A DNA stretch of 32,000 nt from a virus (IMGVR_UViG_3300029374_000341:1-32000), one strand, 5' to 3'. Numbered from the stretch's first letter, positions 4,648 to 31,290 are shown. Program-made: numbers and translations. Notes: generated by a model not told the origin, from the sequence alone.

Positions 4648-4896
4648 CTATAATTTAGTTACGTTTAACATCACATAACCATCTTTGAAACCATCGTTAG
4701 TTGTGATGCTACGAATTTGTGCCATTCTGAATAATCCAGTATCCGTTTCTTTGCCTTCATCTAAAGAAACTTGCTTGAATAACACATAATCTTGTTCGTT
4801 GATTTGTTTATCCGTCAAATCAAGAATAATAAAATCGTGTTCTTGGAAAAAATTCCATAATTTAGTATTTAAATTGATTTCATGTGTTTTAACCAT
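4648..4896 (-). CDS. DUF3850 / ASCH-like domain protein
   Basis: 82 aa from the ATG at 4896 (AGGAGG 8 nt upstream). MVKTHEINLNTKLWNFF...DYVLFKQV...GLFRMAQIRSITTNDGFKDGYVMLNV resembles DUF3850 (THelKi.p.yF......D.l.l.E.......tGr.....i..i.....lk.gyvvl). The track's longer 121-aa version overlaps the recombinase start and lacks an RBS. Confidence 0.55.
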   Translation of the reverse strand: MVKTHEINLNTKLWNFFQEHDFIILDLTDKQINEQDYVLFKQVSLDEGKETDTGLFRMAQIRSITTNDGFKDGYVMLNVTKL

Positions 4897-4940
4897 ATAA
4901 AATCCTCCTATTAATATAAAAAAAGCGAGGTAAAACAAAA

Positions 4941-5834
4941 ATGCTATATTCAGAAAAATTAACATCTTGGTTAAAAGAAAAGAAAATCTATCTAAAATAC
5001 AGCACTTACACAAATTATTGTAATGTGATCCACAATCACATCATGCCAAAACTAGGCAATTATCAGATTGAAGATTTGAACAACGATATTCTGCAGGAGT
5101 TTATTCTTCAAAAACTTGAAAATGGTCGTAAAGATGGAAAAGGTGGCATATCATTCAAATATGCCAAAGACATTATTCAAATTCTTAAATTTACGCTTCC
5201 ATTCAAAGTCGATGTTCAGTTACCTTACCATCCTCCTAAGGCGGTTGAGATTTTTGAAAAAGAACATCAAATTTCATTGATTAATCACCTCCAATCTGAG
5301 ATCAACTGTAAAAACTTTGGAATACTTTTATGCATCCACACCGGAATACGCATAGGTGAACTATGCGCTTTGAAATGGTCTGATATAAATGTACAGACCA
5401 AACTTTTAAAAATCGACAAAACCATGATACGAACATACACAAAAGAAGACGGTAGTCATCTTTCAATAACACCGTCTAAATCACGTTCTAGCACTCGTAT
5501 GATTCCGTTGAACACTTGGATAATGCATTACGCAATACTGCTTCAAGGTGATGCAGACAACTATGTGTTAACGAATCGAGATAAACCAATAGAACCTAAT
5601 AAATATAGGCTTTACTACAACCGAATATTGAAAGAACTTGAACTCCCACATCGTAAATTCCACGCGCTCCGACACACATTTGCAACTAGATGTATAGAAT
5701 GTGGATGTGACTATAAATCATTGAGTGAATTGCTTGGACATTCAAACGTATCAATTACCATGAATATATATGTACATCCGCAAATGGAGTTAAAACGAAA
5801 ATGTGTAGAATTGCTTTGTGATTACTATAAGTAA
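4941..5834 (+). CDS. tyrosine recombinase (Xer/phage-integrase family), predicted tail-fibre shufflon invertase
   Basis: 297 aa and the only long plus-strand gene in the prophage. GAGG RBS. Catalytic blocks are visible: HTGIRIGEL (Arg I), FHALRHTFAT (H-x-x-R), LLGHSNVSITMNIYVH (His II / Tyr). The stop at 5832-5834 lies 2 nt before crossover core A. Confidence 0.85.
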   Translation: MLYSEKLTSWLKEKKIYLKYSTYTNYCNVIHNHIMPKLGNYQIEDLNNDILQEFILQKLENGRKDGKGGISFKYAKDIIQILKFTLPFKVDVQLPYHPPKAVEIFEKEHQISLINHLQSEINCKNFGILLCIHTGIRIGELCALKWSDINVQTKLLKIDKTMIRTYTKEDGSHLSITPSKSRSSTRMIPLNTWIMHYAILLQGDADNYVLTNRDKPIEPNKYRLYYNRILKELELPHRKFHALRHTFATRCIECGCDYKSLSELLGHSNVSITMNIYVHPQMELKRKCVELLCDYYK

Positions 5835-5836
5835 AT

Positions 5837-5849
5837 GTATGTCCTTTAC
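5837..5849 (+). repeat. shufflon crossover core copy A (GTATGTCCTTTAC)
   Basis: Identical 13-mer read on the plus strand here and on the minus strand at 6410-6422 and 6661-6673. Copies A and C share 16 nt (GTATGTCCTTTACATC). Confidence 0.85.
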
Positions 5850-6141
5850 ATCAAAATCTGTGGGAGGTGAATACAATCATTTACTTACTGAAAACGAAAT
5901 GCCTATACATAGACACTACGAATATATATTCGTTAAAGGATATCCGGATTGGCCTGTAGTAGATGTAAATGCATATGGAGTCATGATTGACTTTGCAACA
6001 TCAAACTATGTAGCTCCAAATCAAAGTGTTAATGCAACTGATACAAATACATTTGCACATACAGAATTTGCAGGGGGTAACACTGAACACAATAACATGC
6101 AACCATATTTAGTTGTTTTCTTTTGGCGAAGGGTAAAATAG
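5839..6141 (+). CDS. silent tail-fibre C-terminal cassette A (tail-collar tip module, promoterless, opposite strand to the fibre gene)
   Basis: MSFTSKSVGGEYNHLLTENEMPIHRH...GGNTEHNNMQPYLVVFFWRRVK parallels the last 83 aa of the fibre ORF 6423-8258. No RBS of its own. It begins inside core A. Confidence 0.75.
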   Translation: MSFTSKSVGGEYNHLLTENEMPIHRHYEYIFVKGYPDWPVVDVNAYGVMIDFATSNYVAPNQSVNATDTNTFAHTEFAGGNTEHNNMQPYLVVFFWRRVK

Positions 6142-6420
6142 CTACTTGATACGTCTCCAAAAGTAAGTTACCACGTAAGGTTGTACATTATCGTGAGGTT
6201 TGTTTCCGCCTGTTGGATATGTTTGACCGTACCAATAATAATTAGTTCTCTCAGCACGTTCAGTGGCTCTCGTAAAAGGAACATCACTATATGGATTACC
6301 ATATAATGCAGTGGTTACATCAGTTTGTTGGTCTAAGATCCAATGCGTATGGCTCGGTAGCTCTTCACGTGTAAGTTTATGATAGTAGTCTCCACCAATC
6401 CATCCAGCAGTAAAGGACAT
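6142..6420 (-). CDS. silent tail-fibre C-terminal cassette B (tail-collar tip module)
   Basis: MSFTAGWIGGDYYHKLTREELPSHTH...GGNKPHDNVQPYVVTYFWRRIK. It starts 2 nt after the fibre stop with no SD and begins inside core B. It abuts cassette A tail-to-tail with zero spacer. Confidence 0.75.
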   Translation of the reverse strand: MSFTAGWIGGDYYHKLTREELPSHTHWILDQQTDVTTALYGNPYSDVPFTRATERAERTNYYWYGQTYPTGGNKPHDNVQPYVVTYFWRRIK

Positions 6421-6422
6421 AC
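6410..6422 (-). repeat. shufflon crossover core copy B (GTATGTCCTTTAC on minus strand)
   Basis: Exact 13-mer. It is in direct orientation relative to core C and inverted relative to core A. Confidence 0.85.
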
Positions 6423-8258
6423 CTATGCGATACGTTTCCAGAAGTGAACACAGATGGATGGCTGGATGTTGTTATGTGGTTGATTTCCACCAGTATTTGT
6501 TGTATTACTCATAAACCCACCATTAAACCATGAATTATTTGATGCAGATTGGATATTTCCTTTTCCATCAATCCAAACACAATCATTAAATTTATGTGCA
6601 TGACTAGGCATTTCTTTTATTGTTAGTTTGTGCTTGTATTCTCCGTATGTTTTACCAGATGTAAAGGACATACTTGTACTACCGTCATTCCCTGTACCTT
6701 CACCGACTAGTGTACGGCCTTGACCGAACTGTTCCCAAGTTCCACCCAAGAATGTTCCTGGGTTCTTTTTATCGTATGTGATATAGACTGCGCCAACTGG
6801 GAATATTTTATTTAAAAACATTGGAGCTACAATATCGCCTAATACGGTTAGTGTATCTTTTTGGTTTCCGTCTTGACCGAAGAACGTTAATGATCTTCCA
6901 TCTTTACCAAAGTTAATTAACGAGTAAGCAGGTGCTACAGTAAAGATTTGCCATGAGTAGTCATTCATGAACTTATCCTTAACACCGAATGCCACTTCAT
7001 AAGAATTTGTTGCGGATGTAAATAAATTACCTGCTTTGTAGTCTTGCTCAAGAGTATAGTTGTTATCCCATGAATTTATTTTCGTCCATGAACTAGCTCC
7101 ACTAGCTCGATATTGGATATAGAATGACGTCACATTCTTACCAGTTAAACTAGTAAATCCTGCTTTGAAGTGCAATAACGCATACGTTCCACTTGCTTCA
7201 TCAACTGTATAACTTGAGTTAGCACGTCTTGCAGTCACATTCGTTAAGCTAGGTGAACTATATGCAGATACAGTTACTTTGCCACTAATTTGTGAACTTC
7301 TACCACGTGAATCATAGATCGTTGTTGTATAGGTAATGCTACCACTACCTTGTACAGTACCAGTAGTAAATGAGCTATTGTTATACGTTTGCCCCTCAAA
7401 TTTGGTTGATACAGATGTAACAGTTGAGCCTTGCTCACCACTGTAAGTTATTGCGAACTTCAGTCTAGATTGTGACTGAACTATCTGCCCAATTCCTGCA
7501 CATACAGAATTTGCATCTGTTATTTTGATGCTATCAATCGAAGGAACTACACTGCTTCTGACTTTAATGGTTGCATTTACTGATTTAGAGCCAACTGACG
7601 TTGAACCACTGAATGTTTCTAAGGTAAATGTTGCGATACCACTTGTCGAGTTAGGCAAATCCTTTTCCCATGAGGTAGGAATCGTATAAGAAAAAGTGGG
7701 TGTTAATGTCCCACTTATCGTTGTTAATTCACTTGTTTTACCATTCCATGTTGCATAGATTTTATGCGTAAAGTTCTTTGAAGCACTCGAACCATTGATA
7801 TTAATAGTGTTACCACATTCAATACTAGGGCTATCAATAGATATGCTTGATGCTCTTGGAATAGTTGTCAATTTAACTGTACCACTGCAAGAACCAGTAA
7901 TAGGTGCATAATATCCAGGGTTACTTCCACTGAAAGATGCACTTACCGAAATTGTTTTTGAACCATCTGCATCATGCGAAATAGTTACAGCTCCACTTTT
8001 TACACCGACAAGAGTTCCAGCTGGAACATTAGGTGTAAAGCTTTGATCTAACACTTGAGTACCATTCACGGATACTTTAAATGTTTCTGGAATTCCATTG
8101 TGTGTATGGTACTGCGTATTAGATCGAATACCAACCCACCACTCTACATATGATGTGTTGTTTTCAACAGAATAAGATATTTCATTGATTCGTAATATTA
8201 ACGAGTATTTATCCCACTGACCACTACCAATTTGTATTCCACCACTAAATTCTGCCAT
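6423..8258 (-). CDS. tail fibre / receptor-binding protein (DUF859-like N-terminal part, tail-collar C-terminal tip; currently carries cassette C)
   Basis: 611 aa. The N-terminus (SYSVENNTSYVEWWVGIRSN...VSVNGTQV...TISHDADGSKTISVSASF...KLTTIPRAS) resembles siphovirus DUF859 proteins. The C-terminus (...MSFTSGKTYGEYKHKLTIKEMPSHAHKF...GGNQPHNNIQPSICVHFWKRIA) shows phage tail-collar motifs. Confidence 0.85.
   Translation of the reverse strand: MAEFSGGIQIGSGQWDKYSLILRINEISYSVENNTSYVEWWVGIRSNTQYHTHNGIPETFKVSVNGTQVLDQSFTPNVPAGTLVGVKSGAVTISHDADGSKTISVSASFSGSNPGYYAPITGSCSGTVKLTTIPRASSISIDSPSIECGNTININGSSASKNFTHKIYATWNGKTSELTTISGTLTPTFSYTIPTSWEKDLPNSTSGIATFTLETFSGSTSVGSKSVNATIKVRSSVVPSIDSIKITDANSVCAGIGQIVQSQSRLKFAITYSGEQGSTVTSVSTKFEGQTYNNSSFTTGTVQGSGSITYTTTIYDSRGRSSQISGKVTVSAYSSPSLTNVTARRANSSYTVDEASGTYALLHFKAGFTSLTGKNVTSFYIQYRASGASSWTKINSWDNNYTLEQDYKAGNLFTSATNSYEVAFGVKDKFMNDYSWQIFTVAPAYSLINFGKDGRSLTFFGQDGNQKDTLTVLGDIVAPMFLNKIFPVGAVYITYDKKNPGTFLGGTWEQFGQGRTLVGEGTGNDGSTSMSFTSGKTYGEYKHKLTIKEMPSHAHKFNDCVWIDGKGNIQSASNNSWFNGGFMSNTTNTGGNQPHNNIQPSICVHFWKRIA
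6661..6673 (-). repeat. shufflon crossover core copy C (inside the expressed fibre gene)
   Basis: Exact 13-mer spanning the codons for S-M-S-F-T, 83 codons before the stop of ORF 6423-8258. Confidence 0.85.
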
Positions 8259-19340: not shown

Positions 19341-20546
19341 CTATGCCTTTAAATCAACAACTACATCGCCTTTTGATACTGCTTTGTAGTTTTTGTCACA
19401 TTCAACTACTGTACAATGATTAGTTTCTGCTGCTTTAATATCTGCTCCTTCTTCGAAGTTCTTCCAAGATTTTACATCTGCACCATATGCCACTGTTTCT
19501 TCAGAAGCTCCTACCTTATATTTGAATTTGTTATTCATAGATTGTAACTGTTCTGCAACCGCTACTTTTGTAGTTCCTGTTTCTTCGCCTTGAGAAGCAG
19601 TCAATGTTAAATCACGTAATGTTTGAGTATCGGCATCACCTACTGCAAAGTGTGCAATTGCATCTTGATATTCGCACATTAAACGTAATCCCATGATTGC
19701 GAACATATCAGAAATAGCACGATCATAGTTTCCTTCTACATGGAATCCTAAGAAGCCAGTAGTACTGTCAGTAGTATATGAAAGTCCTGCTTTTACAAAT
19801 TCAGAATCACTTGGATCTACATAATATGCAATGATGTTGTTCATTGGAGTTGCTACTACTGTTTTTTCTGCAACTCGGTCTGTTAAGAATACAATATCTG
19901 CTCCTAAAAAGTTTTTAATGTAAGTCAAACCAAATGCAGTCTGCATAGATACTTTAGCTTCTCCTAAATAGCGATATGCATCCAAAGTATTTACGAATAC
20001 AACAATACCAGTGGTATTTCGTTTCATTTGTTGGAATTTGTGTTTAACATTACCGATTGCCATTGCGATAGCCATTTGCCAAGTAGCTTCATGACCTACT
20101 AAGCTACCTGAATTCAACTGTTTATATAAGCGATCAGTGATGTTATCTTGCAAATCAATACGGAACTGTTCGTCAGTATCAGATACTGCAGCTTCATATC
20201 CTTTCTCTGCAATTGCTTCAATAGAAACGGCTTTGCGGAATTTCTCGATTCGAATTGTATCGAACACTTCTTCTTCAACTTTGTATTCGCTTAATGGAAT
20301 TGATTCACCTTCTGCTACCTTTCCATCCTGTAATGTTCCTGTTACTTTCTTTGTTTTTAAAACAGAACCGTTTGCTTTACGGATTGGACGAATGATTCCT
20401 AATACATCCAATAAAGCTTGGATGTTCTTTCCAAAACTAGTAACGAAATCAATTTCGTGTGCTCTAACTTGGATGTTACCTGCTCCTGTTAATCCTGTAG
20501 GTGCTGCAAACATTTGTAAGTTCATGCCTTTATAAATTTTTTTCAT
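19341..20546 (-). CDS. major capsid protein (HK97 fold, 80alpha/SPP1-like module)
   Basis: 401 aa after the scaffold gene. N-terminus MKKIYKGMNLQMFAAPTG carries the Prp-type cleavage motif. AGAGG SD. Confidence 0.85.
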   Translation of the reverse strand: MKKIYKGMNLQMFAAPTGLTGAGNIQVRAHEIDFVTSFGKNIQALLDVLGIIRPIRKANGSVLKTKKVTGTLQDGKVAEGESIPLSEYKVEEEVFDTIRIEKFRKAVSIEAIAEKGYEAAVSDTDEQFRIDLQDNITDRLYKQLNSGSLVGHEATWQMAIAMAIGNVKHKFQQMKRNTTGIVVFVNTLDAYRYLGEAKVSMQTAFGLTYIKNFLGADIVFLTDRVAEKTVVATPMNNIIAYYVDPSDSEFVKAGLSYTTDSTTGFLGFHVEGNYDRAISDMFAIMGLRLMCEYQDAIAHFAVGDADTQTLRDLTLTASQGEETGTTKVAVAEQLQSMNNKFKYKVGASEETVAYGADVKSWKNFEEGADIKAAETNHCTVVECDKNYKAVSKGDVVVDLKA

Positions 20547-20573
20547 ATGTAATTAACCTCTTTCTATTTATAT

Positions 20574-21209
20574 TTACTGGAATAAATCCATATTTTCCGC
20601 AATCATGCGTTGTCTTTCCATTGGATCAGGGATACTCAAGATTGATTCACGAGTTACCCCTTTGTTTGAACCTCCACGTTTAGGACCGTTTCCTTTCAGT
20701 TTATCTTTAACTGCTTTTTCTACTTCAGATTCAAACATCTTAACAAATGCATCAACCGCTTTCTTTGTTTTATCTGCATCTTTATTAACTAGAACAGATA
20801 AAAGGTCATCTCCAACGTTAATATCACGCTCTGCGCACATTTTACGTGCTTCATTTGTCATTTCTGCGATTGCGTTTTTTGCTTTCAATTCATCTAGCTC
20901 TTTTTGCACTTTGTCACGTTCTGCTTCTGCTCGTTCTTGTGCATTCATTTCGGCTAAGCGCTTAGCTTCTGCTTTTTCTTTTTCTTGATCTGCTTTCCAA
21001 CGTGCAAACCTTTTATCAAGAATCGCATCCAAATCTTTATCTGAATATTTCTTTTCAGATGATTTGTCTTTTTCTTGGTTGTCTTGTCCCTCAGTTGATT
21101 GAGTCTGAGTTGATTGAGTGTTTTCTGCTCCTGTACTCTCATTCTCACCTGAAGTTTCATCTGCAAAAAGTTGTAAGCAAAAAGGTAGTCTGTCATTGAA
21201 TTTTTTCAT
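20574..21209 (-). CDS. capsid scaffolding protein (DUF4355-like)
   Basis: 211 aa from the ATG at 21209 (AGGAGG 9 nt upstream). Acidic and helical, with YSDKDLDAILDKRFARWKADQEKEK. N-terminus MKKFNDRLPFCLQLFADETSG carries the Prp motif. Confidence 0.85.
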   Translation of the reverse strand: MKKFNDRLPFCLQLFADETSGENESTGAENTQSTQTQSTEGQDNQEKDKSSEKKYSDKDLDAILDKRFARWKADQEKEKAEAKRLAEMNAQERAEAERDKVQKELDELKAKNAIAEMTNEARKMCAERDINVGDDLLSVLVNKDADKTKKAVDAFVKMFESEVEKAVKDKLKGNGPKRGGSNKGVTRESILSIPDPMERQRMIAENMDLFQ

Positions 21210-21298
21210 ATATATTTTTCCTCCTATTTTTCTGACTTTGCTTGTCAATTTCCCATATCTTTTTAAGGCATAAATGCTTGGCCTATAACCCATACAGT

Positions 21299-21466
21299 TT
21301 AACGACGTGAATGCTTGGTCTTGTTTGGTAGTGTGGATATGTAGACTTTATAAGTCTTGGCTTTTCCACAAAAAATGCACCGTTGATTACGTACTTCAAC
21401 GATGCATTCTAGCCATTGATCATAATATTGTCTTTCGACACGCTCCAAATATTTGTGATTACACAT
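21299..21466 (-). CDS. small Cys-containing ORF (55 aa), unknown function
   Basis: Below the track cutoff. Its ATG overlaps the Prp stop (GATGTGTAA). MCNHKYLERVERQYYDQWLECIVEVRNQRCIFCGKAKTYKVYISTLPNKTKHSRR*. The CxxC plus upstream Cys/His suggest a possible zinc ribbon. Confidence 0.35.
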   Translation of the reverse strand: MCNHKYLERVERQYYDQWLECIVEVRNQRCIFCGKAKTYKVYISTLPNKTKHSRR

Positions 21467-21767
21467 CTTTCAGTTCCACACATTCAGGATATGCTTCTTC
21501 TGTGCCTTTGCAGCCTATTCTGAAGAAATTAATTGCTAGTTCTCCAGCAAGGTCCAAACCCGAGATATACAACGTCTTGCTATCTTTATCAGGTTCGTAA
21601 TATCTGCAAAGTGCATCCGATGTTTCGTCGATTGAAATGGCCAATGTCAAAAATAGTACTGAGATAGCGCTGCAGACGATATCCTTTCCTATCGGAGCGT
21701 AACGAGCATGGCCATGCACTTCAATCAGGCAATCACTTTCTGTCTGTTTAATTTTAATTTTTATCAC
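21459..21767 (-). CDS. prp: Prp-like cysteine protease (ribosomal-processing cysteine protease / DUF464 family homologue)
   Basis: 102 aa with a GTG start and GGGAG SD. MIKIKIK...IEVHGHARYAPIGKDIVCSAISVL reproduces the Prp His/Cys dyad context (GHA......G.DiVCAavS). Located between the head-morphogenesis and scaffold genes. Confidence 0.7.
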   Translation of the reverse strand: MIKIKIKQTESDCLIEVHGHARYAPIGKDIVCSAISVLFLTLAISIDETSDALCRYYEPDKDSKTLYISGLDLAGELAINFFRIGCKGTEEAYPECVELKDV

Positions 21768-21785
21768 ATAGTATCACTCCCTTGC

Positions 21786-21814
21786 ATAATAAAAGGCCAC
21801 TCATTTGAGTGACC
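21786..21814 (-). terminator. rho-independent terminator inside the head module
   Basis: Minus strand GGTCACTC-AAAT-GAGTGGCC (8 bp including one G.U) followed by TTTTATTAT. Confidence 0.55.
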
Positions 21815-21835
21815 TGTGTTTTAAAGTTAAAATCT

Positions 21836-22054
21836 TTAGCACCAAGCAACAGTGCCTGCCTTTTCTCCTGCTGAAATGCCCCATAGAGCATGGCCTGCAT
21901 AATACTGCTTAACATCAACGGATGACTGTTCTAACACTTCGCGATTCCCGTCATCGTATATCGCAACTTTTCCTTTTGCGTTTGGGTCTATGTCAGGTGA
22001 AAACAAATACACATATCTGCCATTTTTATATTCTAATAGCTCAAATGTAATCAT
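21836..22054 (-). CDS. small protein of unknown function downstream of the MuF-domain gene
   Basis: 72 aa with a strong AGAGGTGG SD. MITFELLEYKNGRYVYLFSPD...YYAGHALWGISAGEKAGTVAWC. Followed by a terminator. Confidence 0.6.
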   Translation of the reverse strand: MITFELLEYKNGRYVYLFSPDIDPNAKGKVAIYDDGNREVLEQSSVDVKQYYAGHALWGISAGEKAGTVAWC

Positions 22055-22078
22055 TTTACCACCTCTTTCTATATGAAA

Positions 22079-23503
22079 TTATACATCATGGTCCTTAAGA
22101 TACTCAAGCAATTCTTTTTGATAATTATATATTTTTTGGACTCTTTCATGACTATCTTCATATATAACATCGAGGCTATCTTGCATTTCTTTCTCTTCAG
22201 CTAATTCATGATTTAACATTGTTATATCGTGTTTTTGAATATCCTTTCCCTGTCTTAGTCTAAGCCAAGAATGTGCCATATAATAGTCAGGGTCAAACTT
22301 TTTTATTTCTCCACTTCTAAATTTATGTTTGCGAATAAACACATGTTCATATATATTACTTACCTCTTCCTCTGTAAAACCTGAATTTTTAGCTACTTGT
22401 TTTATTTCATAAGACTTTTTTCTATTTGTAATTTGAGCGTACAGTGCTTTTGCAATCTCGTCTCTTTTTTTATAGTTTGGGTCATTTTCATTATTCCAAG
22501 CGCCATTTAATGCACCAGAGTTATTTGTTTTGGCCTCTAGTTCTTTCCACTCGTCAAACCTTAGATCATGCTCTCCATTTGCTAATCCATCTAGCCATTT
22601 CTCGTATACTCCTCTATCTGAATAAGGTGCTGTTGCACAATGACAATTTGGATGCATAGGTGGAGCGTTATCGCCTATTTTCATGTCTTTAAGCTTGAAT
22701 GTTTTGCCATCCATTTCTTTACACAAAGGACACACATCTTTTAAGCTACACGCTATGTATTCATACTCATCTATTCCGTTTGCTTCGTAAGATTCAATCT
22801 GCGCTTGTGTTTGAACTCGTGCAATCTCGGTTCTTAACAATCTTTCTGCATTGCATCTTGATACATCGAACTTTTTACGAATGAGCGGAATAAATTCTCT
22901 AGGATTCTTGCCTTGAATCAATGCATTGGATAAAACACTGGATAAACTGTTTTTTAACTGGTCTTGATTGACCCAAATTCGTTCTGAAAAGGTTGCGTTC
23001 TTAAAAGATGAATCTGCTACTGCTTTGGCTGTCTTCGCATTGTCAATCACTGTATCACCTAAGATAGAAGCATTACGTTTGATCTCTTCTAAATACGCAC
23101 CTTCTAGCTTATCACCAGTATACGACTTCAATTCGTCATGGCCTGCCACAAGCTCTAATCCAATGTTTGCTTTTAAAAGTTCCAATCGGTTGACTTTCAT
23201 TGCAAGATTATAAAGTCTCATCTGTTCATTGGCTTCATCTGAAAAGTTCTTTTCCTTTACATACTTCTTAGCTTTTCTTTTATATGCCTCAATATCTATG
23301 TTTGAAACTCTTTTTTTAGCTTCTGCCATAGTAATGTTTTCTTTATTTGCATAGCGAGTAAAAAAGGATTCGATTTCCTTTTCAACCGAATCCATCATAT
23401 TTGCATATATTTCTTGTATCTCATCCGCATATTCCTGTTCATCTTTTAAGCGTTCCTTTTTCCATTCAAGCTCACGATCTCGCCAATATGTTTTACTGCT
23501 CAT
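22079..23503 (-). CDS. head morphogenesis protein, SPP1 gp7 / Mu F family, with ~170-aa C-terminal extension
   Basis: 474 aa from the ATG at 23503. The MuF signature ACSLKDVCPLCKEMDGKTF...DNAPPMHPNCHCATAPY lies near residues 250-300, followed by an unassigned C-terminal domain. Confidence 0.85.
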   Translation of the reverse strand: MSSKTYWRDRELEWKKERLKDEQEYADEIQEIYANMMDSVEKEIESFFTRYANKENITMAEAKKRVSNIDIEAYKRKAKKYVKEKNFSDEANEQMRLYNLAMKVNRLELLKANIGLELVAGHDELKSYTGDKLEGAYLEEIKRNASILGDTVIDNAKTAKAVADSSFKNATFSERIWVNQDQLKNSLSSVLSNALIQGKNPREFIPLIRKKFDVSRCNAERLLRTEIARVQTQAQIESYEANGIDEYEYIACSLKDVCPLCKEMDGKTFKLKDMKIGDNAPPMHPNCHCATAPYSDRGVYEKWLDGLANGEHDLRFDEWKELEAKTNNSGALNGAWNNENDPNYKKRDEIAKALYAQITNRKKSYEIKQVAKNSGFTEEEVSNIYEHVFIRKHKFRSGEIKKFDPDYYMAHSWLRLRQGKDIQKHDITMLNHELAEEKEMQDSLDVIYEDSHERVQKIYNYQKELLEYLKDHDV

Positions 23504-24851
23504 CGTTTTGTGAATCCTCATTATTTTGGAAGATTCGGTTTTCAGTTTCTACCATATCATTCTCATCTTCCTTTTTGATACGTTCCAATTCGGCATTCGT
23601 ATCTTCAACTGCCGAGATAAATGACAATTGGGTTTCGTGAGACACGATTCCTGATAATTGTGCAGCAGTCTGTGCTTCTTCTAATAAGTTTGCAGGATAA
23701 TTTTGTGTAAACTTGTATTCAACCTCAAGCCAGTCGTCTTCAGAACGATGTGTGATCGCATTACTAAATAAGACTCGATATCTACGATTCATTCCAGACG
23801 TGAACTTTCGCTCTTTCGCTTTTGCCAGGTTTGACATAGAAAGAAGTTTATATCTCAATGCAATTCCTGATGACGTTCCAAAGTTCTCATCATTGATATT
23901 GGCCACCATTGAGTTTTGGAAGATTAAGCGTTCTAATCTGTTGATCAGATTTTCCTGTGTTGCATCTGCATTTGGCTTTGACATGAAATCAACTACAATT
24001 CCATCACCACTTCCATCCATTGACTCAAAGTTAATTGTTCGATTATCACGAATGTGTACTAAATCAGACTCTTCTAATTTTGGGCCTAAGATTTTTAAAT
24101 AGGCATCAGCAAAATAATCAACATCATTTGCTTTTTCTGACATTGCCTTATTATAAGCATTAATCAAACTGTATGTTGATTCAAAAATAGACATACGTTC
24201 TTCATTCTCAATAAATTCAGTGGCCGGAATATCATTGAATCCATGCTCTACGCCATTAAATACATGAAGGCCACCTTTATCGTTGAACTCATACTTATAT
24301 GTTTTGTCGTAGATATATCCACGCATAACCTCGTCTACAATCTGATATGTTACAAAATATCTAGGTTTCTGAACTGTTGATTCATCATAAACCATGAAGC
24401 CTTCTCTTGGATCTAAATAGGTAATCCCTAGATTTCCATAATCATCATTGAAATACAATTCATATCCTTTTCCAAAAACACTACAAATCTTAGATAGTTC
24501 TGCATTGTTGTCGTCTTGGTCATTGTATTTATCTAGCAAGTTGATATAATCATCAATTTCTTTTTTCTTTGATGAGACTTTGATTGGAACACCAATAAAA
24601 AAACCGTTGAATGTATCAACAATGTATTTTGCAAAGTTGACCACAACACGGTTATCGGGTTTATAGGCTTCTTTGTTGGCTTGATGCAAGATTGGATAAT
24701 CACCAATATAGGCATCAAATAGCTTTTTATATCTGTTTGTGATTAACGATTTATGCTTTGTTATCAATCCATTCAACACTTCAATGTCAAGGATATCTTT
24801 ATCATCAGATAGCTTAAATATCGTATCCGGTTTAATAATGTATGCGTTCAT
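23493..24851 (-). CDS. portal protein, SPP1 gp6 family
   Basis: 452 aa directly after TerL (TAATG overlap). Size, acidic C-tail and position are typical of SPP1-type portals. Confidence 0.88.
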   Translation of the reverse strand: MNAYIIKPDTIFKLSDDKDILDIEVLNGLITKHKSLITNRYKKLFDAYIGDYPILHQANKEAYKPDNRVVVNFAKYIVDTFNGFFIGVPIKVSSKKKEIDDYINLLDKYNDQDDNNAELSKICSVFGKGYELYFNDDYGNLGITYLDPREGFMVYDESTVQKPRYFVTYQIVDEVMRGYIYDKTYKYEFNDKGGLHVFNGVEHGFNDIPATEFIENEERMSIFESTYSLINAYNKAMSEKANDVDYFADAYLKILGPKLEESDLVHIRDNRTINFESMDGSGDGIVVDFMSKPNADATQENLINRLERLIFQNSMVANINDENFGTSSGIALRYKLLSMSNLAKAKERKFTSGMNRRYRVLFSNAITHRSEDDWLEVEYKFTQNYPANLLEEAQTAAQLSGIVSHETQLSFISAVEDTNAELERIKKEDENDMVETENRIFQNNEDSQNDEQ

Positions 24852-25593
24852 TAAAGTCCTCCTTTAAATGTTCTTACTTTAACTCGACCAAATGCATATT
24901 TTTCAACTGCATAACGCATCGAGTCCATTAAGTGGTTAAAATCATCAATTGGGCGGTTAATTTTGTTGCCCAATCTATCTTCATCCCATGTGTAGTTTCC
25001 TATTTCAGTTATGAAATTAACACATCTAGGATGAATGATAATTTCGAAATCTTGAATATACTGAATTCCATGTGTAATGGAATCCTTTCCCTTTTGTGAC
25101 TTTTCAACACGAAGACCATACCCCCTAAGTTCATCAATTGACTTAGGTTCTGCACAGTCTGCCGTGAAAGACTTCTTTTGATAATGTGAGCTTTCAATCT
25201 CTTCATAAAGCCTTTTATTAGAAAGGCCTTTTTTATAAATTTCATCCCAAACATAGAGTTTCTTATGTTCTGTATCAATGAAACCTATAAAAACTGCAGC
25301 AGGATCATTTGTATAACCGAAGTCAATACCATTTACAGATTCACAGTCAATAACCTGATCTAGTGTGAATTCTTCCTCTTTCCAATTCTCATAAACCAAT
25401 CCATCAACAATACCCCAATTTCCTAATCCAGCAACTTGATATCGTCTAGGATTGTTCTTCTTCATGTTTTCAAACAACCTTAAATCGGCATCATCCAACC
25501 ATTCATTACACTTATAATTGGTTGTGATAGCCAATATATCAGGGTCATTCTCTGCATCAAAGAAACGTTTTTTAAGCCAATGGTGTTCGTTCC
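24851..25593 (-). CDS. terL: terminase large subunit, exon 2 (nuclease half)
   Basis: The frame continues ...(W)NEHHWLKKRFFDAENDPDILAITTNYKCNEWL... There is no SD before the track's ATG at 25606. It joins in frame to exon 1 at the predicted splice sites. Confidence 0.8.
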
Positions 25594-26509
25594 CATTTGT
25601 GTTCATGTAAGGTCGTTAATCTTACACCGCTTTCGCAGCTCATTGTTACCAATGAGATCAGACTATATCACCATCTTGAATTTTCAAGATGCCCCCCATT
25701 TCCGCTCACTTGAGCGTACTCCATTAAAAAAACCGCATTAACTGCGGTTAGGATAGTCGTTAAACTTTTTTTATTTTCATTCCGTTAATAACACATTCGT
25801 TTGATTTAGATAATTTATTTATTAATTTAGTTGATAAATTATATCTCTTTTGTAATTGATATCCGCTTATAAATACTTCACCTGTTGTCTCGTTTATATA
25901 CTTTCCAGTTAGTTCGATTTCTATAAGCTCTCCAGATTCAACCATTTTATAAACCTTATGCCTTGTAACACCTAAACAATCAGCAGCTTCTCTCATTGAT
26001 GAAAAACATTGTTTTCCATCTGGTGTAGAAACTGGCTTTCTTATTGAATTGTTTAGATCTTCTTTTTGTTCACCAGTCCATACATTTGCTATGGTCTTTT
26101 TGTGCTTTTCTGTATAAGCGATTTCTTTATCTATTGCATCTTTTTTTGTGCTTGCAGTATCAACGATTGCTATTTCAACATCTTTGAACAATTCAAGATT
26201 GTTTGCAATCATGTATTTATGTATTGGCTGTTGACGTGTTTTATCTCTAAAGCCTCTTCTATGCTCATTGATACGAGCACCGATTGTCCGTGTGCTTCCT
26301 ACATAAATAATCTTTTGTGTTTTAATTTCTCTAAATAGATATATGTAATAAAATGGTGTTTGTTTCATATCTATATTTTACCATTATATTCCATTCCAAG
26401 CAACAAACGAAAATAAAACTTAGCTTTTGATTGCCCTCTCTTTCGAGTAGGGTTTTCCAAAAATTAAAGGGGTTTTCATATAAAATCACTTTTATATGCC
26501 GCAAAATCT
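25594..26509 (-). mobile_element. putative group I intron (about 916 nt) carrying a GIY-YIG homing endonuclease ORF
   Basis: It interrupts the terL frame precisely. Exon CCGU pairs with intron GCGG, giving a U.G wobble at the 5' splice site, and the last intron nucleotide is G. Hairpins are dense on both sides of the HEG ORF, several with GNRA loops. Confidence 0.7.
25760..26368 (-). CDS. GIY-YIG homing endonuclease (I-TevI-like architecture)
   Basis: 202 aa. FYYIYLFRE...IIYVGSTRTIGARINEHRR carries the GIY / YIG / R..E motifs. C-terminal HTH-like segments (REAADCLGVTRHKVYKMV; YQLQKRYNLSTKLINKL). Confidence 0.85.
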   Translation of the reverse strand: MKQTPFYYIYLFREIKTQKIIYVGSTRTIGARINEHRRGFRDKTRQQPIHKYMIANNLELFKDVEIAIVDTASTKKDAIDKEIAYTEKHKKTIANVWTGEQKEDLNNSIRKPVSTPDGKQCFSSMREAADCLGVTRHKVYKMVESGELIEIELTGKYINETTGEVFISGYQLQKRYNLSTKLINKLSKSNECVINGMKIKKV

Positions 26510-27023
26510 ACGGGTTGAATGTAATCATCCACTGTTTCCAAAGATAAGGCGGTAACTCACCACGAATCGACTCATCCAATGTATCAAAGTCTTTTTCGCT
26601 CGTTATTTCATAAGCTTCTTCGAGCCATACCCAACATAGAAACCCATAATCTACAGTAATAGATGTTATTTTTAACGGATCATCAAGCCCTCTAAAGAGA
26701 ATCTTCTGCCCAGTTGGAAGATATGTTGCCTCCAAAGGCGAATATTTAAATTCCCATAAGTGTTCAACCTCTAATCTTCTTGTTGCCCATTTTAAATCCG
26801 TGAAGCACGAATCTTTAAGTGTTCGATAAGTCTTACGAACTACCAATGTATTCGACTTATCATACTTCATCATGTTGTAGATAATTCGCAATGCAGTTGT
26901 TTTTGACTTCTTAGAAGCACGAGAACCTTTGCATGCTGCATAACGTCCCCTGAAGTTCCAATAGGATTTATATCCTTTTCCAACTATTTTAGGTAAATTG
27001 ATAGATTTAGTCTTCAAGCTCAT
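26510..27023 (-). CDS. terL: terminase large subunit, exon 1 (ATPase half, PBSX/Terminase_3 type)
   Basis: From the ATG at 27023 (AAGGAG upstream). Walker-A-like CKGSRASKKSKT, then ...WVWLEEAYEI...LWKQWMITFNP, with a TAG immediately after the predicted 5' splice site. Confidence 0.8.
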
Positions 27024-27504
27024 CCTCTCCTTCAAACTTAGGTACTACGATTTCTGATTGAACTTTATCTGTAAACAGTGAATATCTTTTTCCAAGTAAT
27101 TCTGCAGCTTTATTTGCATCAGAAAGCTTTGCAGGAATCTCAACAATTTGAGGAACTTCTTCTTTGACTGTTTTCTTTCTCGGCTTTCCATCTCCTGTAT
27201 CGACATACTCTGAGCGTTCTTTTGTCACTGTAACAACAACAGATTCCTTCATTTCTCGTCGCATTACTTTTGTGAGGTATTCCATGACTTCTTGAACATC
27301 TGCTATCTTTCCCGAACTGACTTTTTCAAGTTGTTCATCAATATAAGCTTTGACCTTAACATTTCTTAACAATCTTGAAGCAGCAGACATTGCAGCACCA
27401 TCTGACTTTACATGAGGATACGCAACTTTATATGCCCTTGTTGCATTCAGATCAATCAAATACTCGTCTACAAATATTTTCTGCTTTTCAGTCAACTTAG
27501 CCAT
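27007..27504 (-). CDS. terS: terminase small subunit (Terminase_2 / P27 family)
   Basis: 165 aa. MAKLTEKQKIFVDEYLIDLNATRAYKVAYPHVKSDGAAMSAASRLLRNVKVKAYI is the classic N-terminal HTH region of this family. Confidence 0.9.
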   Translation of the reverse strand: MAKLTEKQKIFVDEYLIDLNATRAYKVAYPHVKSDGAAMSAASRLLRNVKVKAYIDEQLEKVSSGKIADVQEVMEYLTKVMRREMKESVVVTVTKERSEYVDTGDGKPRKKTVKEEVPQIVEIPAKLSDANKAAELLGKRYSLFTDKVQSEIVVPKFEGEDELED

Positions 27505-27584
27505 AGAATTCCTCCTTTCATTATTTTGAAATTAAATATCTGTCTTAATGCCCTTTCCATCCTTTTCTTGGTGAGCCAGCTCCT

Positions 27585-27926
27585 CTAACCCACAATTGAT
27601 CTACTTCTATAGATATTCCATACTTTCATAGCTCTAGGCATATCCATGTAAAGAGAAAAATCTGGTGTAAGAACACAGTCATACTGTTTTAAGACATTCA
27701 CATATCGTTCGGGAGTGTTCCAAATGCGCTCAAACTGATAATCATCAATAAACATATGAATTCCAGATTGATAATTCTTTGAAGAGATTGCTTCATTGAA
27801 TCCAATTAACTCATTAGGAATATGAAGTGTCTTTTTAATAACAGGCATTTCAAATGGGCCATCTGTTTCAAATGGATCATATAAATCTAGATTGTATTTT
27901 TTGATTGTTAGTTCTCTTCCTGGCAT
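27585..27926 (-). CDS. DUF4417-like protein, apparently truncated
   Basis: 113 aa from the ATG at 27926 (AAGGAGG SD). GIHMFIDDYQFERIWNTPERYVNVLKQYDCVLTPDFSLYMDMPRAMKVWNIYRSRSIVG* matches the N-terminal half of DUF4417. As I recall, family members are roughly twice as long. Confidence 0.55.
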   Translation of the reverse strand: MPGRELTIKKYNLDLYDPFETDGPFEMPVIKKTLHIPNELIGFNEAISSKNYQSGIHMFIDDYQFERIWNTPERYVNVLKQYDCVLTPDFSLYMDMPRAMKVWNIYRSRSIVG

Positions 27927-27947
27927 GGAGCACCTCCTTTCTTGCAT

Positions 27948-27978
27948 AAAAAAAGGGAATATCTTTTTTGATACACCC
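27948..27978 (-). terminator. promoter-proximal terminator in front of the late operon
   Basis: Minus strand GGGTGTATC-AAAAAA-GATATTCCC (9 positions, one U.U and one G.U) followed by TTTTTTT. It lies between the 28019-28027 promoter element and the first late-gene RBS. Confidence 0.45.
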
Positions 27979-28018
27979 TAAATCGCATATTTTGTAACAG
28001 CTAATCTCTTACTAATCC

Positions 28019-28027
28019 ATTATATCA
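28019..28027 (-). promoter_or_regulatory. extended -10 element TGATATAAT of a putative late promoter
   Basis: Perfect TGnTATAAT on the minus strand. The 12-bp palindrome GTACTTTAGTAC (28039-28050) sits where a -35 would be. Confidence 0.45.
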
Positions 28028-28060
28028 GAGATTAAAGGGTACTTTAGTACGCTTTTTGTT

Positions 28061-28540
28061 TTATATTTGTTTGATTTGTTGTTTAACTAATGATTTCATG
28101 TGTCGATTCACATTTGATATATGGTATTGCATCTTCAATGATTCGTAAGATTTGTTGTCGAAGTAATCAAGAATAAATTGTACTTCATCACTTTGTTTAA
28201 GCAATTCAAGATAAGACATTGCTTTGCATAAACTATACCTCATCACTTGTAGTTCTTGAATCAATTCATCTTCATAATCAAACACTAATCCATTTGAATT
28301 TGAATGATACTTAGATCCTGGTGCTTTGTATCGTGCATCTTCATCGACTAGCTTACCTTCCCAATCTTTAACTTTAATTGTGATTCGTTGCCAATTCAAC
28401 GGACTTTTATATCCTCTATCATAATTTAATAAATCAGATACTTTACTTAATTTATTTTCAATCTCAGTGATACGTGCAATGTACCAGTCAATATTGCGTA
28501 TCTGTCTGATTACATATGATGCATCTTCATTTGAAATCAT
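28061..28540 (-). CDS. putative late transcription regulator (sigma region-4-like C-terminus; ArpU/RinA/DUF1492-type by position)
   Basis: 159 aa from the ATG at 28540 (TAATG overlap). It is the last gene before the late promoter. The C-terminus (QFILDYFDNKSYESLKMQYHISNVNRHMKSLVKQ) resembles an HTH of sigma-70 region 4. Confidence 0.4.
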   Translation of the reverse strand: MISNEDASYVIRQIRNIDWYIARITEIENKLSKVSDLLNYDRGYKSPLNWQRITIKVKDWEGKLVDEDARYKAPGSKYHSNSNGLVFDYEDELIQELQVMRYSLCKAMSYLELLKQSDEVQFILDYFDNKSYESLKMQYHISNVNRHMKSLVKQQIKQI

Positions 28541-28770
28541 TAACCTAAATATCCTTTCGCTCTGTATGCACATTCAAGTTCATAAACTGAAAGCTTATGA
28601 TCTAAAAGATATTGAACTTCTGCCGACATATTTCTTTTGATAATTTGGTCCATCAAAAATATATCTTTCTTTTCAATATTGTTTTGATAGCAAAGTCTGC
28701 CTAGCTCTTCAATTTGTTTCATTGATTTACTAGCACTTGATAACATTTGAGTATTGCTCCACGCACTCAT
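28540..28770 (-). CDS. hypothetical phage protein
   Basis: 76-aa ORF translationally coupled to its neighbours. Confidence 0.55.
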   Translation of the reverse strand: MSAWSNTQMLSSASKSMKQIEELGRLCYQNNIEKKDIFLMDQIIKRNMSAEVQYLLDHKLSVYELECAYRAKGYLG

Positions 28771-28774
28771 TTAA

Positions 28775-28990
28775 TCACTTCCTTTTCTTTTTATTTTCAT
28801 TTACAACAACTGAGCCACGATTCCATGATTCATCACCAGTGTGATATCTTCTTTCGTTTGCTCTTTCCTGGTGTTTCTTATATTCTTTTAATCCTAGATT
28901 CTCACGTTCCAATCTAACAATGTAATCTATAGTGTTTTGCAAACATTCTCTTATATTTTCATCATGGATATCGTTTACGTTTGCATTCAT
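28775..28990 (-). CDS. hypothetical phage protein
   Basis: 71 aa from the ATG at 28990 (TGATG overlap, GAGGTGA SD). Basic C-tail. Confidence 0.55.
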   Translation of the reverse strand: MNANVNDIHDENIRECLQNTIDYIVRLERENLGLKEYKKHQERANERRYHTGDESWNRGSVVVNENKKKRK

Positions 28991-29172
28991 CACTTCTTCA
29001 CCTCTGCTCCAACGTTCTTAACAGACTCCATAAAAGAAGCAATACGTACAGTTCTTAGAAGTGCTATCCATAATTTCTCATTATCATTCTTCAACTCTTC
29101 GATTTTACTCAGCATTACAGCACAACATAGAACTGATCCAATAAGAAAACCAACTATAAAGTAGAACATCAT
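28990..29172 (-). CDS. small membrane protein, unknown function
   Basis: 60 aa with an N-terminal TM (FYFIVGFLIGSVLCCAVML). Confidence 0.5.
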   Translation of the reverse strand: MMFYFIVGFLIGSVLCCAVMLSKIEELKNDNEKLWIALLRTVRIASFMESVKNVGAEVKK

Positions 29173-29399
29173 TCATTCTCCTCGACAAATTCAATTTGTT
29201 CTCTATCTACACAAAATCTTGCACCATCATTAAATTCGATGTCGTACAAATATCTAGTCGTGCCAACAAGTACACAGATATTTTGCTTATGCGTAACATT
29301 ACCAATTTTACCGACATAATCTTCTTTGTGCTTACCAGTACTACTAATCAATTCATATTCGTATTTATCAGTAAGATACAGTAGTCTAGCTTTTAGCAT
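29169..29399 (-). CDS. hypothetical phage protein
   Basis: 76 aa from the ATG at 29399 (TAATG overlap with the upstream ORF). Confidence 0.55.
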   Translation of the reverse strand: MLKARLLYLTDKYEYELISSTGKHKEDYVGKIGNVTHKQNICVLVGTTRYLYDIEFNDGARFCVDREQIEFVEENE

Positions 29400-30064
29400 T
29401 ATTCGATTACCTCGCAATTATCTAAGATTTCACAAATTGGAATTTTTGTATCAATGTTTTTAAAATATCCTTTTTCACGCATTTTAAACAAATGTGTTTG
29501 ATTTGCAATGTTATTATACGTTTTATAATCTTTATGCACGCTTAACAAATCATACTCAAATTGAGTTAATTTATACTTTGGTTTTGTATAACCAAGATCA
29601 TTAAACATCTGCTCATCAGTTTTTTCTTTGTGTTCCTCATCAATTCTTTGGAACGGTGCCCAAGCAACAATAGGTTCGCAAGGAACAAATGCTTCATCAT
29701 CTTCATCTTCTTCTTTCTCTTTTACATATTCCTCATATTTATCGACTATAAATTCATCCATTTCTTGTTTTGTAATCCCTAGGCTTAATAATTCATTTTT
29801 ATAATTCATTCCATAAATCCATGAATCTATATCTAAATATTGCTCTAGTGAATAGTTATCAACATCTATAAATCTACACCGACATTCTAGAATGTATTTC
29901 TTATACTGGTCTATTTTTTCGGCTAAATCATTTATTTCTTTTTTTGCTTGTGCAACCTCTTCACTATGTAATTCTTGTTCCTCTTTTAGCTTTCTTTTTA
30001 AATACTCGTTATTAGACTTTAACAAATCATATGCTTTTAGTGACATTTGAACAAACTCTTCCAT
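29399..30064 (-). CDS. hypothetical phage protein with N-terminal coiled coil and acidic linker
   Basis: 221-aa ORF whose start overlaps the upstream stop (TAATG). Confidence 0.65.
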   Translation of the reverse strand: MEEFVQMSLKAYDLLKSNNEYLKRKLKEEQELHSEEVAQAKKEINDLAEKIDQYKKYILECRCRFIDVDNYSLEQYLDIDSWIYGMNYKNELLSLGITKQEMDEFIVDKYEEYVKEKEEDEDDEAFVPCEPIVAWAPFQRIDEEHKEKTDEQMFNDLGYTKPKYKLTQFEYDLLSVHKDYKTYNNIANQTHLFKMREKGYFKNIDTKIPICEILDNCEVIE

Positions 30065-30234
30065 TAAAAATCATCCTCCTCGTTTGAATCATCATTAATA
30101 ATTGCGTTGTATAAGTATTCAATACGTTCTCTGTATTCCTCTTTTGTGATTTCTGACAAAGGCTTTTTGAATCCTGTAGGCAATAATTTAAATCCGAATT
30201 CTTTTTCAAATTTATCTAAATCTTTTTCTGTCAT
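30064..30234 (-). CDS. hypothetical small phage protein (56 aa)
   Basis: Below the track cutoff. MTEKDLDKFEKEFGFKLLPTGFKKPLSEITKEEYRERIEYLYNAIINDDSNEEDDF*. ATGA overlap upstream and TAATG overlap downstream. It fills a gap that otherwise holds only implausible ORFs. Confidence 0.55.
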   Translation of the reverse strand: MTEKDLDKFEKEFGFKLLPTGFKKPLSEITKEEYRERIEYLYNAIINDDSNEEDDF

Positions 30235-30443
30235 ACATCCACCTCATCATCGGCAGGCATTTGAAACAAAGTATTGCCTTGATACGTTGATACTTTTTCA
30301 ATCATATCTAAAACTAACAGAGCTTTTTCTTCGGTTGAATATTCACCAATGAATGAACAACCAGCCCATATTTGTTTATCATGATAAATGGTTACATCAT
30401 GAATTTCTGTTAATTTTTTTCTATCCTGACTCCGAATCCACAT
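30231..30443 (-). CDS. hypothetical phage protein
   Basis: 70-aa ORF in the operon frame. Confidence 0.55.
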   Translation of the reverse strand: MWIRSQDRKKLTEIHDVTIYHDKQIWAGCSFIGEYSTEEKALLVLDMIEKVSTYQGNTLFQMPADDEVDV

Positions 30444-30445
30444 AC

Positions 30446-30943
30446 CTAGTACCCCTTCACTAATCTTTCTTTATTGATCTCATTCTTGCGAATATATTCG
30501 TTGTAGATTTCCCCAAACGAATATCCTAAATGCAATCCTAATGCGATTACGTAAGCTAATACGTTATCATCTCGTGTTAAACTGATTACACAACTAAATG
30601 CATATGCCTGTCCAAATCCTAAATCAGTTTTTAACTTGTTATAATTCCGCTTAATGTCCTCGTCTTGATAACATCCTGTACCGAACTTGATTTCGTACAT
30701 TAATGCGAAATGCACAACATCAATGTATTCTTCAAATACTTTGGCAGGGTCTTTTTCTTCTTGAGTGAACTTCCACCAACACCAATCCGATTTTTGAGCG
30801 TGCATCAATTCTCCTAATTCATCAAACAATGCACTTTCTAATTGGCTTTTAGAAACATAGTCAACATTATGTTTCTTAAATACTTCCGTATCATATGCTT
30901 TCTGTCTTTCAAGCATATCTTTAATCATTTCTGTACTTGTCAT
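30446..30943 (-). CDS. dimeric (all-alpha) dUTPase / dUTPase_2 family
   Basis: 165 aa. ALFDELGELMHAQKSDWCWWKF...EEYIDVVHFALMYEI...IYNEYIRKNEINKERLVKGY follows the dimeric dUTPase pattern. AAGGAG SD. Confidence 0.75.
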   Translation of the reverse strand: MTSTEMIKDMLERQKAYDTEVFKKHNVDYVSKSQLESALFDELGELMHAQKSDWCWWKFTQEEKDPAKVFEEYIDVVHFALMYEIKFGTGCYQDEDIKRNYNKLKTDLGFGQAYAFSCVISLTRDDNVLAYVIALGLHLGYSFGEIYNEYIRKNEINKERLVKGY

Positions 30944-30955
30944 TTGTTTCTCCTT

Positions 30956-31279
30956 CTATTTTGAAAACAATAGTTTCCCTTTCTGTTCCGCCTTAAATTC
31001 TTCATATCTTTCAATCATTTTAGGTGTTGCCCATTCAGGTATGCCTTCAAAAACTTCTAAAATTTTAGTGCCTTTGTAATGAGCTAATTTATATTTATCA
31101 TCAAATAAATAAACTCTATTCCTGATTTGCAATCCTTTTTCTTTGACTTTTCATACATATTCCCATTTGCCTTCGATATTTCTTTCAATAACCGAATAGC
31201 AAATTTCAACAAATCTACATAGATTGATTTCGTCTTTTCTTATGTAATTTGCTTTTCTCATCCTTGTTTCTTTATTCAT
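30956..31279 (-). pseudogene. ORF interrupted by one in-frame TGA (42 codons + TGA + 64 open codons)
   Basis: AGGAG SD 6 nt before the ATG at 31279. The TGA lies at 31153..31151. The same frame then stays open for 64 codons to the TAG at 30956-30958, with no plausible restart codon or RBS. Confidence 0.5.
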
Positions 31280-31290
31280 TCTTTACTCCT

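Follow-up and report, generated by a model that had tools for sequence, protein, structure and literature searches.

The viral DNA examined here, a window of 32,000 nucleotides (nt) from IMGVR_UViG_3300029374_000341 (positions 1-32000), very probably carries a site-specific inversion shufflon that exchanges the receptor-binding tip of a siphovirus tail protein, referred to below as the fibre. The fibre gene is composed of a constant body and an exchangeable 3' end, and the same site heads every exchangeable end. In the mechanism that we propose, a tyrosine recombinase would bring together the copy of this site within the fibre gene and an oppositely oriented copy heading a silent cassette, and invert the DNA between them, after which the silent cassette would form the new in-frame 3' end of the gene. 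The evidence comes from close relatives, in which the same cassettes occur in several arrangements that differ by inversions, and from the anatomy of the locus itself.

Anatomy of the locus

Along the plus strand, the locus reads recombinase, cassette A, cassette B and cassette C joined to the fibre body, the first two on the plus strand and the others on the minus strand. The recombinase, 297 amino acids (aa) long, is encoded at 4941-5834 (+) and is presumably the shufflon invertase, given its Pfam domains, its catalytic residues and its position next to the cassettes. Its stop codon (5832-5834) lies 2 nt ahead of the core of the recombinase-proximal site A (5831-5849, +; GTAAAT-GTATGTC-CTTTAC), which comprises an exact 13-nt core and a 6-nt left arm. 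Cassette A (5839-6141, +; 100 aa) is silent and inverted relative to the fibre gene, and cassette B (6142-6420, -; 92 aa) is silent and oriented as the fibre gene. Both were recognised by a partial match to the Gp10_C profile. Site B (6410-6428, -), identified by its exact core, has a left arm that matches poorly and begins right after the stop codon of cassette C. The fibre open reading frame (ORF; 6423-8258, -) encodes 611 aa. Its constant body (6672-8258, -; aa 1-529) consists of DUF859 and the first third of a gp10-like C-terminal domain, according to the Pfam matches to DUF859 and Gp10_C, and is followed in frame by the active cassette C (6423-6671, -), which provides the current tip of 82 aa and the stop codon. 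Site C (6661-6679, -; GTACAA-GTATGTC-CTTTAC) has an exact core and lies within the fibre gene, where it encodes TS followed by MSFT. By analogy with the isomers of the sister phage described below, the whole invertible region would span 5837-6673, with the inverted outer cores A and C as its bounds.

An earlier note on this DNA had given the same positions for the recombinase, cassettes A and B and the fibre, and all of them hold on recheck, as does its statement that the recombinase ends 2 nt before core A. It had also described cassettes A and B as lacking a promoter and a ribosome-binding site. We agree, as we found no ribosome-binding site for them and no promoter signal above chance. The tip C, which it had given as 83 aa, has 82 aa when counted from MSFT.

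All three cassettes are headed by the same 13-mer, GTATGTCCTTTAC, with exact copies at 5837-5849 (+), 6410-6422 (-) and 6661-6673 (-), precisely where they had been reported, and nowhere else in the 32 kb. Allowing up to two mismatches adds just one match in the window, and the chance expectation for the exact 13-mer is around 0.001. The DNA on both sides of the cores had been described as diverged, which is correct only in part: on the 3' side of the core it codes for a common motif (MSFTxxxGGEYxHxL), and sites A and C are 91% alike over 23 nt.

An inversion between sites A and C would fuse cassette A to the fibre body and turn cassette B around, and a second inversion between B and C would then join cassette B to the body. 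The same end point could be reached by an inversion between A and B followed by one between A and C. The two-step route to cassette B had been proposed in the earlier note and is geometrically correct.

Inversion isomers in related phages

The clearest series of arrangements was found in a sister phage whose recombinase is 94.9% identical to that of the window and whose core is the same. It is present in four ENA assemblies, as loci L052, L055, L056 and L057 (from ERZ27318456, ERZ27318589, ERZ27318350 and ERZ27318420). These loci have the same four cassettes (92, 90, 96 and 100 aa) in four arrangements, and a different cassette is joined to the fibre body in each. In silico inversion of L052 between its sites 1 and 2 reproduced L055 except for 1 mismatch in 4100 nt. 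From L055, inversion between sites 1 and 4 led to L057 (4 mismatches over the same length), and from L057, inversion between sites 1 and 2 led to L056 (3 mismatches, again in 4100 nt). For comparison, the uninverted loci differ from each other by 343-775 mismatches. The four predicted fusion proteins all exist (P0053, P0059, P0060 and P0063), with bodies that are 99.8-100% identical to each other and tips that are 99-100% identical to the cassettes. Since the contigs of the sister phage were assembled with k-mers of 119-141 nt, a repeat of 13-25 nt cannot have produced chimeric joins. The earlier note had proposed that a tyrosine recombinase inverts DNA between the cores and thereby fuses another cassette to the body, and had suggested comparing homologous prophages for other cassette orders; the sister phage has exactly such alternatives, in the form of four isomers related by inversions bounded by the cores.

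Similar observations were made in more distant relatives. In two pairs, L028/L030 and L017/L035, the segment between the cores is inverted at equal identity between flanks that remain collinear. The tips that are silent in the window are also found on near-identical bodies elsewhere. A B-type tip (99% identical) is fused to the fibre body (97.7%) in protein P0168, and likewise in P0040, P0053, P0098, P0102 and P0113, while the fibre of Holdemanella porci (WP_412361181.1) has an A-type tip (81%) on its body. In L058, a C-type cassette (82% identical) is silent and B is the active tip. Related loci have from two cassettes (L005, from Firmicutes bacterium M10-2) to eight (L058), and L039 has seven sites. 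In all the related loci that we looked at, the recombinase gene adjoins the cassettes. The relatives include both of the patterns expected from inversion, i.e., a silent pair in tandem opposite the active tip, or one silent cassette in the same orientation and one in the opposite orientation.

Sequence assemblies tend to be interrupted at this locus. Four of the five Erysipelotrichaceae genome contigs end in the shufflon or just past it, three of them inside the core, and fibre proteins at NCBI are cut off 5-17 residues past MSFT. These breaks and cut proteins suggest that mixed orientations are present within samples. Contigs L001 and L004 end at ...GTATGTC and L002 at ...GTATGTCCTTTA. Public assemblies of these bacteria are systematically broken at the shufflon.

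In some relatives the system appears to have decayed. The core inside the fibre gene, i.e., the active one, is mutated to GTATGTCCTTTGCT (MSFA) or GTATGTCCTTTGAT (MSFD), with TTTGC or TTTGA in place of the TTTAC that the silent cassettes retain. This was observed in L062 and in L064/L065 (around position 2700 in each case) and in proteins P0036, P0048 and P0099. These may be naturally locked variants. The recombinase of L062 is also truncated to 233 aa. In L059 (positions 5970-6862; Holdemanella porci, GCA_046980545.1) the recombinase is frameshifted into pieces of 185 aa and 110 aa and an A-type tip is on the body, which probably makes it a locked copy. Finally, a 57-aa truncated A-like cassette runs directly into another core within the eight-cassette shufflon of L058 (3646-3812); it looks like a scar of aberrant or deletional recombination.

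The recombination site

To describe the site we used a logo of 104 contexts. The right arm is written NTTTAC and codes for (M)SFT; within it, TTTAC is invariant. The six bases of the left arm have the consensus GTAAAT, conserved at 46-91%, and thus come close to GTAAAG, the reverse complement of the right arm, so that the two arms form an imperfect inverted repeat. The GT ahead of the ATG and the A two bases before this GT (logo position -1) are kept even where the DNA upstream is non-coding. Among the isomers of the sister phage, a C/T polymorphism at position 8 of the core follows the cassette to its new location and the flank on the left does not, which points to strand exchange within GTATGTC. 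We read the site as an element of 19 bp that would combine a weak left arm, a 7-nt exchange region (GTATGTC) and a strong right arm, a reading drawn from these sequence comparisons.

Another repeat was noticed in the same region. There are two exact copies of the 19-mer TGCACATACAGAATTTGCA on the plus strand, at 6054-6072 inside cassette A and at 7497-7515 inside the constant fibre body, where only 0.04 matches are expected by chance even with up to 3 mismatches. The copy in the body is conserved in many relatives and the second copy is limited to A-type cassettes.

The fibre and its exchangeable tip

The fibre has a DUF859 domain followed by Gp10_C at aa 482-610 (83.1 bits, against a Pfam cut-off of 27). 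Cassette A covers positions 53-139 of the 139 in the Gp10_C profile, and cassette B positions 55-139. As they match only this part of the profile, the cassettes are partial domains. In the gp10 structures 5hx2 and 2fl8 of the PDB, residues 450-490 align to the constant part of the fibre and residues 576-602 also align to the fibre; the end of the cassettes (NIQPxxxVxxWxRIA) aligns to the C-terminus of T4 gp10. The exchanged piece makes up approximately the final two thirds of a head domain that resembles that of T4 gp10. The likeness to gp10 is based on the sequence match, as an AlphaFold2 model of the whole fibre had a predicted local distance difference test score (pLDDT) of 30-50 over residues 440-611.

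To assess the diversity of the tips, we searched for homologues of the fibre. Among 8,000 candidates scored, 2,511 had an E-value of 0.001 or less. Of 120 representatives returned, 107 could be split at the junction between body and tip. Their bodies are 84-98% identical to that of the window, and their tips, which have many lengths, are 25-48% identical to C. The junction falls at the same place in all 107, with a body ending in ...GTGNDGSTS, i.e., NDGSTS followed by MSFT. In an alignment of 46 homologues, the invariant columns are unbroken up to T533, beyond which only P600 and W607 are invariant. The ends of the tips are conserved (MSFTxxxGGEYxHxLxxxEMPxHxH ... GGNxxHNNxQPYxVxxFWRRxK) and their middle varies; this variable middle presumably holds the receptor-contacting loops. 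We clustered 193 distinct tips and identified 32-47 types. Exchange of the tip presumably alters the host range of the phage.

The recombinase and the separate integrase

The recombinase has a SAM-like core-binding domain (Phage_int_SAM_3, aa 5-55) and a catalytic domain (Phage_integrase, aa 113-282), with the catalytic pattern R137/H241/R244/H267/Y277. Pfam identifies no arm-binding domain in its 297 aa, and no extra domain after the catalytic tyrosine, as the protein ends only 20 aa past Y277. The NCBIfam search reached no curated family (the best match was XerA, with 71 bits against a cut-off of 220), and the sources that name proteins of this family use only the name "integrase". The family is common: a single cluster at 90% identity has 2,215 members. 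When we searched deposited phage genomes with the recombinase protein, nothing exceeded 40% identity and the top matches were unannotated faecal contigs. A search of the same genomes with the DNA of the locus returned zero matches.

The 46-kb contig L060 is identical to positions 20446-32000 of the window (100% identity over 11,555 nt) and extends beyond it. At its end we found genes for an S24 repressor and for an integrase of 367 aa, in which an arm-binding domain (Arm-DNA-bind_4) is present. Hence, the 297-aa enzyme is a second recombinase, located between the tail and the lysis genes. A promoter-like site at 4874-4903 and a GAGG ribosome-binding site precede its gene. As these signals are its own and lie on the strand opposite to that of the late genes, the recombinase is probably made in the lysogen, in which case induced virions would carry different tips.

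Homologues of the recombinase in Bacteroidales are 32-39% identical and may belong to the group of invertases that act on type I restriction hsdS genes or are of the Tsr type. One of them, in an uncultured member of the Bacteroidales (RUG720; L008, 5157-7707), is 37% identical to the recombinase of the window and has on either side an inverted repeat of 750 nt, the two copies being 78% alike. It probably belongs to another kind of inversion system, perhaps one that is hsdS-like or that acts on surface proteins.

Alternative explanations

Several observations weigh against the shufflon as we describe it. The case for catalysis by the 297-aa recombinase is built on its adjacency to the cassettes and on decayed copies, and the enzyme is presumably, by this reasoning, the catalyst of the inversion. 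For the prophage of the window itself, 11 contigs have an identical recombinase and 8 an identical 611-aa fibre, and those among them that were listed all have the arrangement of the window. Scans of JGI metagenomes and IMG/VR matched neither the predicted junctions nor the parental one and are hence uninformative. In addition, cores B and C are direct repeats, between which a tyrosine recombinase of the ordinary kind would be expected to excise cassette C. Yet the layout with the active tip followed by a cassette in the orientation of B is common and apparently stable. Mutated cores or broken recombinases in some relatives further indicate that individual copies can be locked.

Of the other ways to account for the locus, the one closest to ours is that the shufflon family is real and the copy in the window is effectively locked, inverting rarely or never and always leaving tip C on the fibre. 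The single arrangement shared by the listed contigs with an identical recombinase or fibre would fit this, and locking does happen in relatives, through frameshifted or truncated recombinases and mutated active cores. Yet the window has three exact cores and a full-length recombinase with all catalytic residues and 94.9% identity to the enzyme of the sister phage with its four isomers, and an assembly shows just the majority arrangement of a sample. We thus regard a locked copy as unlikely, and the one in the window is presumably active at present. Phage tail genes are notoriously mosaic and some tip types are common to phages with different fibre bodies, so one might also take the cassettes for fossils of duplication or of homologous recombination between phages, with tips that derive from mosaicism and a recombinase whose role is unrelated. 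This seems very improbable to us, because exact inversions at the 13-nt cores account for the four arrangements seen in one strain, with at most 4 single-nucleotide polymorphisms in 4.1 kb, RecA could not make efficient use of repeats as short as these, and the core is kept in a non-coding context with the recombinase invariably adjacent.

The remaining explanations concern the products of the genes. Cassettes A and B might be translated as stand-alone small proteins, e.g., alternative adaptors or chaperones: both open frames begin with ATG and are annotated by gene callers, and B begins 2 nt past the fibre stop codon, where translational re-initiation is conceivable. We give this little credence, since their coverage of Gp10_C is limited to positions 53-139, ribosome-binding sites are lacking, and the same sequences form the in-frame C-termini of full-length fibres. 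It is even harder to believe that ORF 4941-5834 encodes the integrase of the prophage, or an enzyme that resolves dimers as Xer does, with repeats that would be attP-like or dif-like. The sources do name it "integrase" and its top profile matches are Xer-type, far under the cut-offs, but the gene sits between the tail and lysis modules, its sites at the heads of the cassettes bound inversions, and a canonical 367-aa integrase with an arm domain lies beside the repressor at the other end of the prophage. The presence of this separate integrase in the same phage led us to reject the integrase function for the ORF. Two other candidates were also rejected: a Gin-like serine-invertase system, because the sole recombinase at the locus is a Phage_integrase with a catalytic tyrosine (Pfam), and a diversity-generating retroelement, because the tips vary as discrete cassettes whose breakpoints are exact. 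An inversion shufflon acting on the fibre tip remains our preferred reading.

Comparison with known systems

The closest counterpart is the Rin shufflon of Bifidobacterium breve and B. longum prophages, in which a tyrosine invertase switches a phage receptor-binding protein (Mavrich et al. 2018, PMC6109161). A Rin-type shufflon was also reported in clade-1 prophages of Eggerthella lenta (2022, PMC8778435). The likeness to the window is one of locus architecture: the phage encodes an armless (XerD-like) tyrosine recombinase beside a set of C-terminal cassettes for the receptor-binding protein that lack promoters, each cassette is headed by a short asymmetric repeat (11 or 8 bp in Rin) that also occurs within the constant gene, and a separate canonical integrase is encoded elsewhere in the genome. 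The Rin paper also raises the same puzzle of directly repeated sites without deletion (PMC6109161). The two systems differ in the phylum of the host (Bacillota, family Erysipelotrichaceae, for the window and Actinomycetota for Rin), in the core (GTATGTCNTTTAC in the window, TTCCCTAACCC or TTCCGTAT in Rin) and in the fold of the tip, which in the window is a T4-gp10-like head cut mid-domain and in Rin-type systems a TP901-1-like head of the receptor-binding protein or an H-type lectin. Isomers of Rin were seen between prophages and virions, and isomers of the type in the window were seen in the sister phage and in more distant pairs.

The shufflon of R64 and other IncI plasmids (Rci, sfx, pilV) resembles the window in that a tyrosine recombinase makes multiple inversions of C-terminal cassettes, in R64 those of an adhesin. 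The sfx sites have a 7-bp exchange region and only their cassette-side arm is well conserved. The site of the window resembles them in design alone, with its 7-nt exchange region and one strong arm; the sequences are unrelated. Rci has 384 aa, and its C-terminal extension restricts the reaction to inversion, whereas the enzyme of the window has 297 aa and no Rci-type extension. The targets also differ, as the window has a DUF859/Gp10_C phage tail protein between Tal-like and lysis genes and R64 has the PilV adhesin of a conjugative thin pilus.

In the Gin (phage Mu), Cin (P1), Min (p15B) and Pin (e14) systems, DNA inversion likewise gives a tail fibre another C-terminal portion, and Min also has multiple cassettes. 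These are serine invertases with Fis-dependent enhancers and 26-bp sites, unlike the tyrosine recombinase of the window. The earlier note had presented the classical phage fibre switches as serine-invertase systems, which overlooks the Rin tyrosine invertase in prophages of Bifidobacterium and Eggerthella (PMC6109161, PMC8778435). Finally, type I restriction hsdS shufflons and the Tsr-type invertases of Bacteroides have, like the window, an armless tyrosine recombinase adjoining inverted partial genes, and the programmed inversion alters specificity domains (overview in PMC9881135). Unlike the window, they have cellular targets and long repeats. The same general survey of programmed inversions includes phage tail genes among the targets (PMC9881135).

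Genomic context

The window is from a siphovirus-type prophage, in which Pfam and PHROGs identify, in order, a tape measure gene, Dit (Sipho_tail), a 1270-aa Tal-like protein, the DUF859 fibre, the shufflon, a holin and an amidase, followed by the host Bax1-I gene. The nearest genomes to the prophage are that of Holdemanella porci and metagenome-assembled genomes of Holdemanella, a bacterium of the human gut. Away from the shufflon, the gene of the large terminase (24851-27035, -) is apparently split by an ORF for a GIY-YIG endonuclease. According to Pfam on the 100% identical L060, an N-terminal part of Terminase_3 is at 26508-27023, the GIY-YIG ORF at 25760-26368, and Terminase_3 with Terminase_3C at 24851-25606, all on the minus strand. 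The interruption may represent a homing endonuclease or an insertion that resembles an intron.

Significance

In the literature, covering part of the journals, we found no description of such a shufflon for phages of Bacillota or Holdemanella. The novelty claimed in the earlier note was nevertheless overstated, as tyrosine-invertase shufflons of receptor-binding proteins have been known since 2018 (Rin). We tentatively suggest, as a possibility that we hold with some reserve, that the locus belongs to a family of shufflons in gut phages that is very abundant and as yet undescribed. In such a family, a minimal 297-aa invertase with neither an arm domain nor an Rci-like extension would act on a 19-bp sfx-like site. 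It would exchange a sub-domain of a trimeric gp10-like head, with as many as eight cassettes to choose from and a pool of over 30 tip types to supply them, and it would invert without deletion between direct repeats. If this is true, inversion without deletion implies a control of direction different from that of Rci. The compact enzyme and its 19-bp site, for which natural locked variants are available, would be a tractable system to study how armless tyrosine recombinases favour inversion over deletion, and the pair of enzyme and site could serve as a small multi-state DNA switch.

For the phages themselves, the finding would mean that the switching of tips by tyrosine invertases is not confined to phages of Actinobacteria and is widespread in prophages of Holdemanella and other human-gut Erysipelotrichaceae. 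Predictions of host range and the tracking of strains must then allow for several tips per genome, and for assemblies that often break at the shufflon. What we find most interesting is how common the family is, the clean natural series of isomers, and the control of direction by a minimal enzyme.

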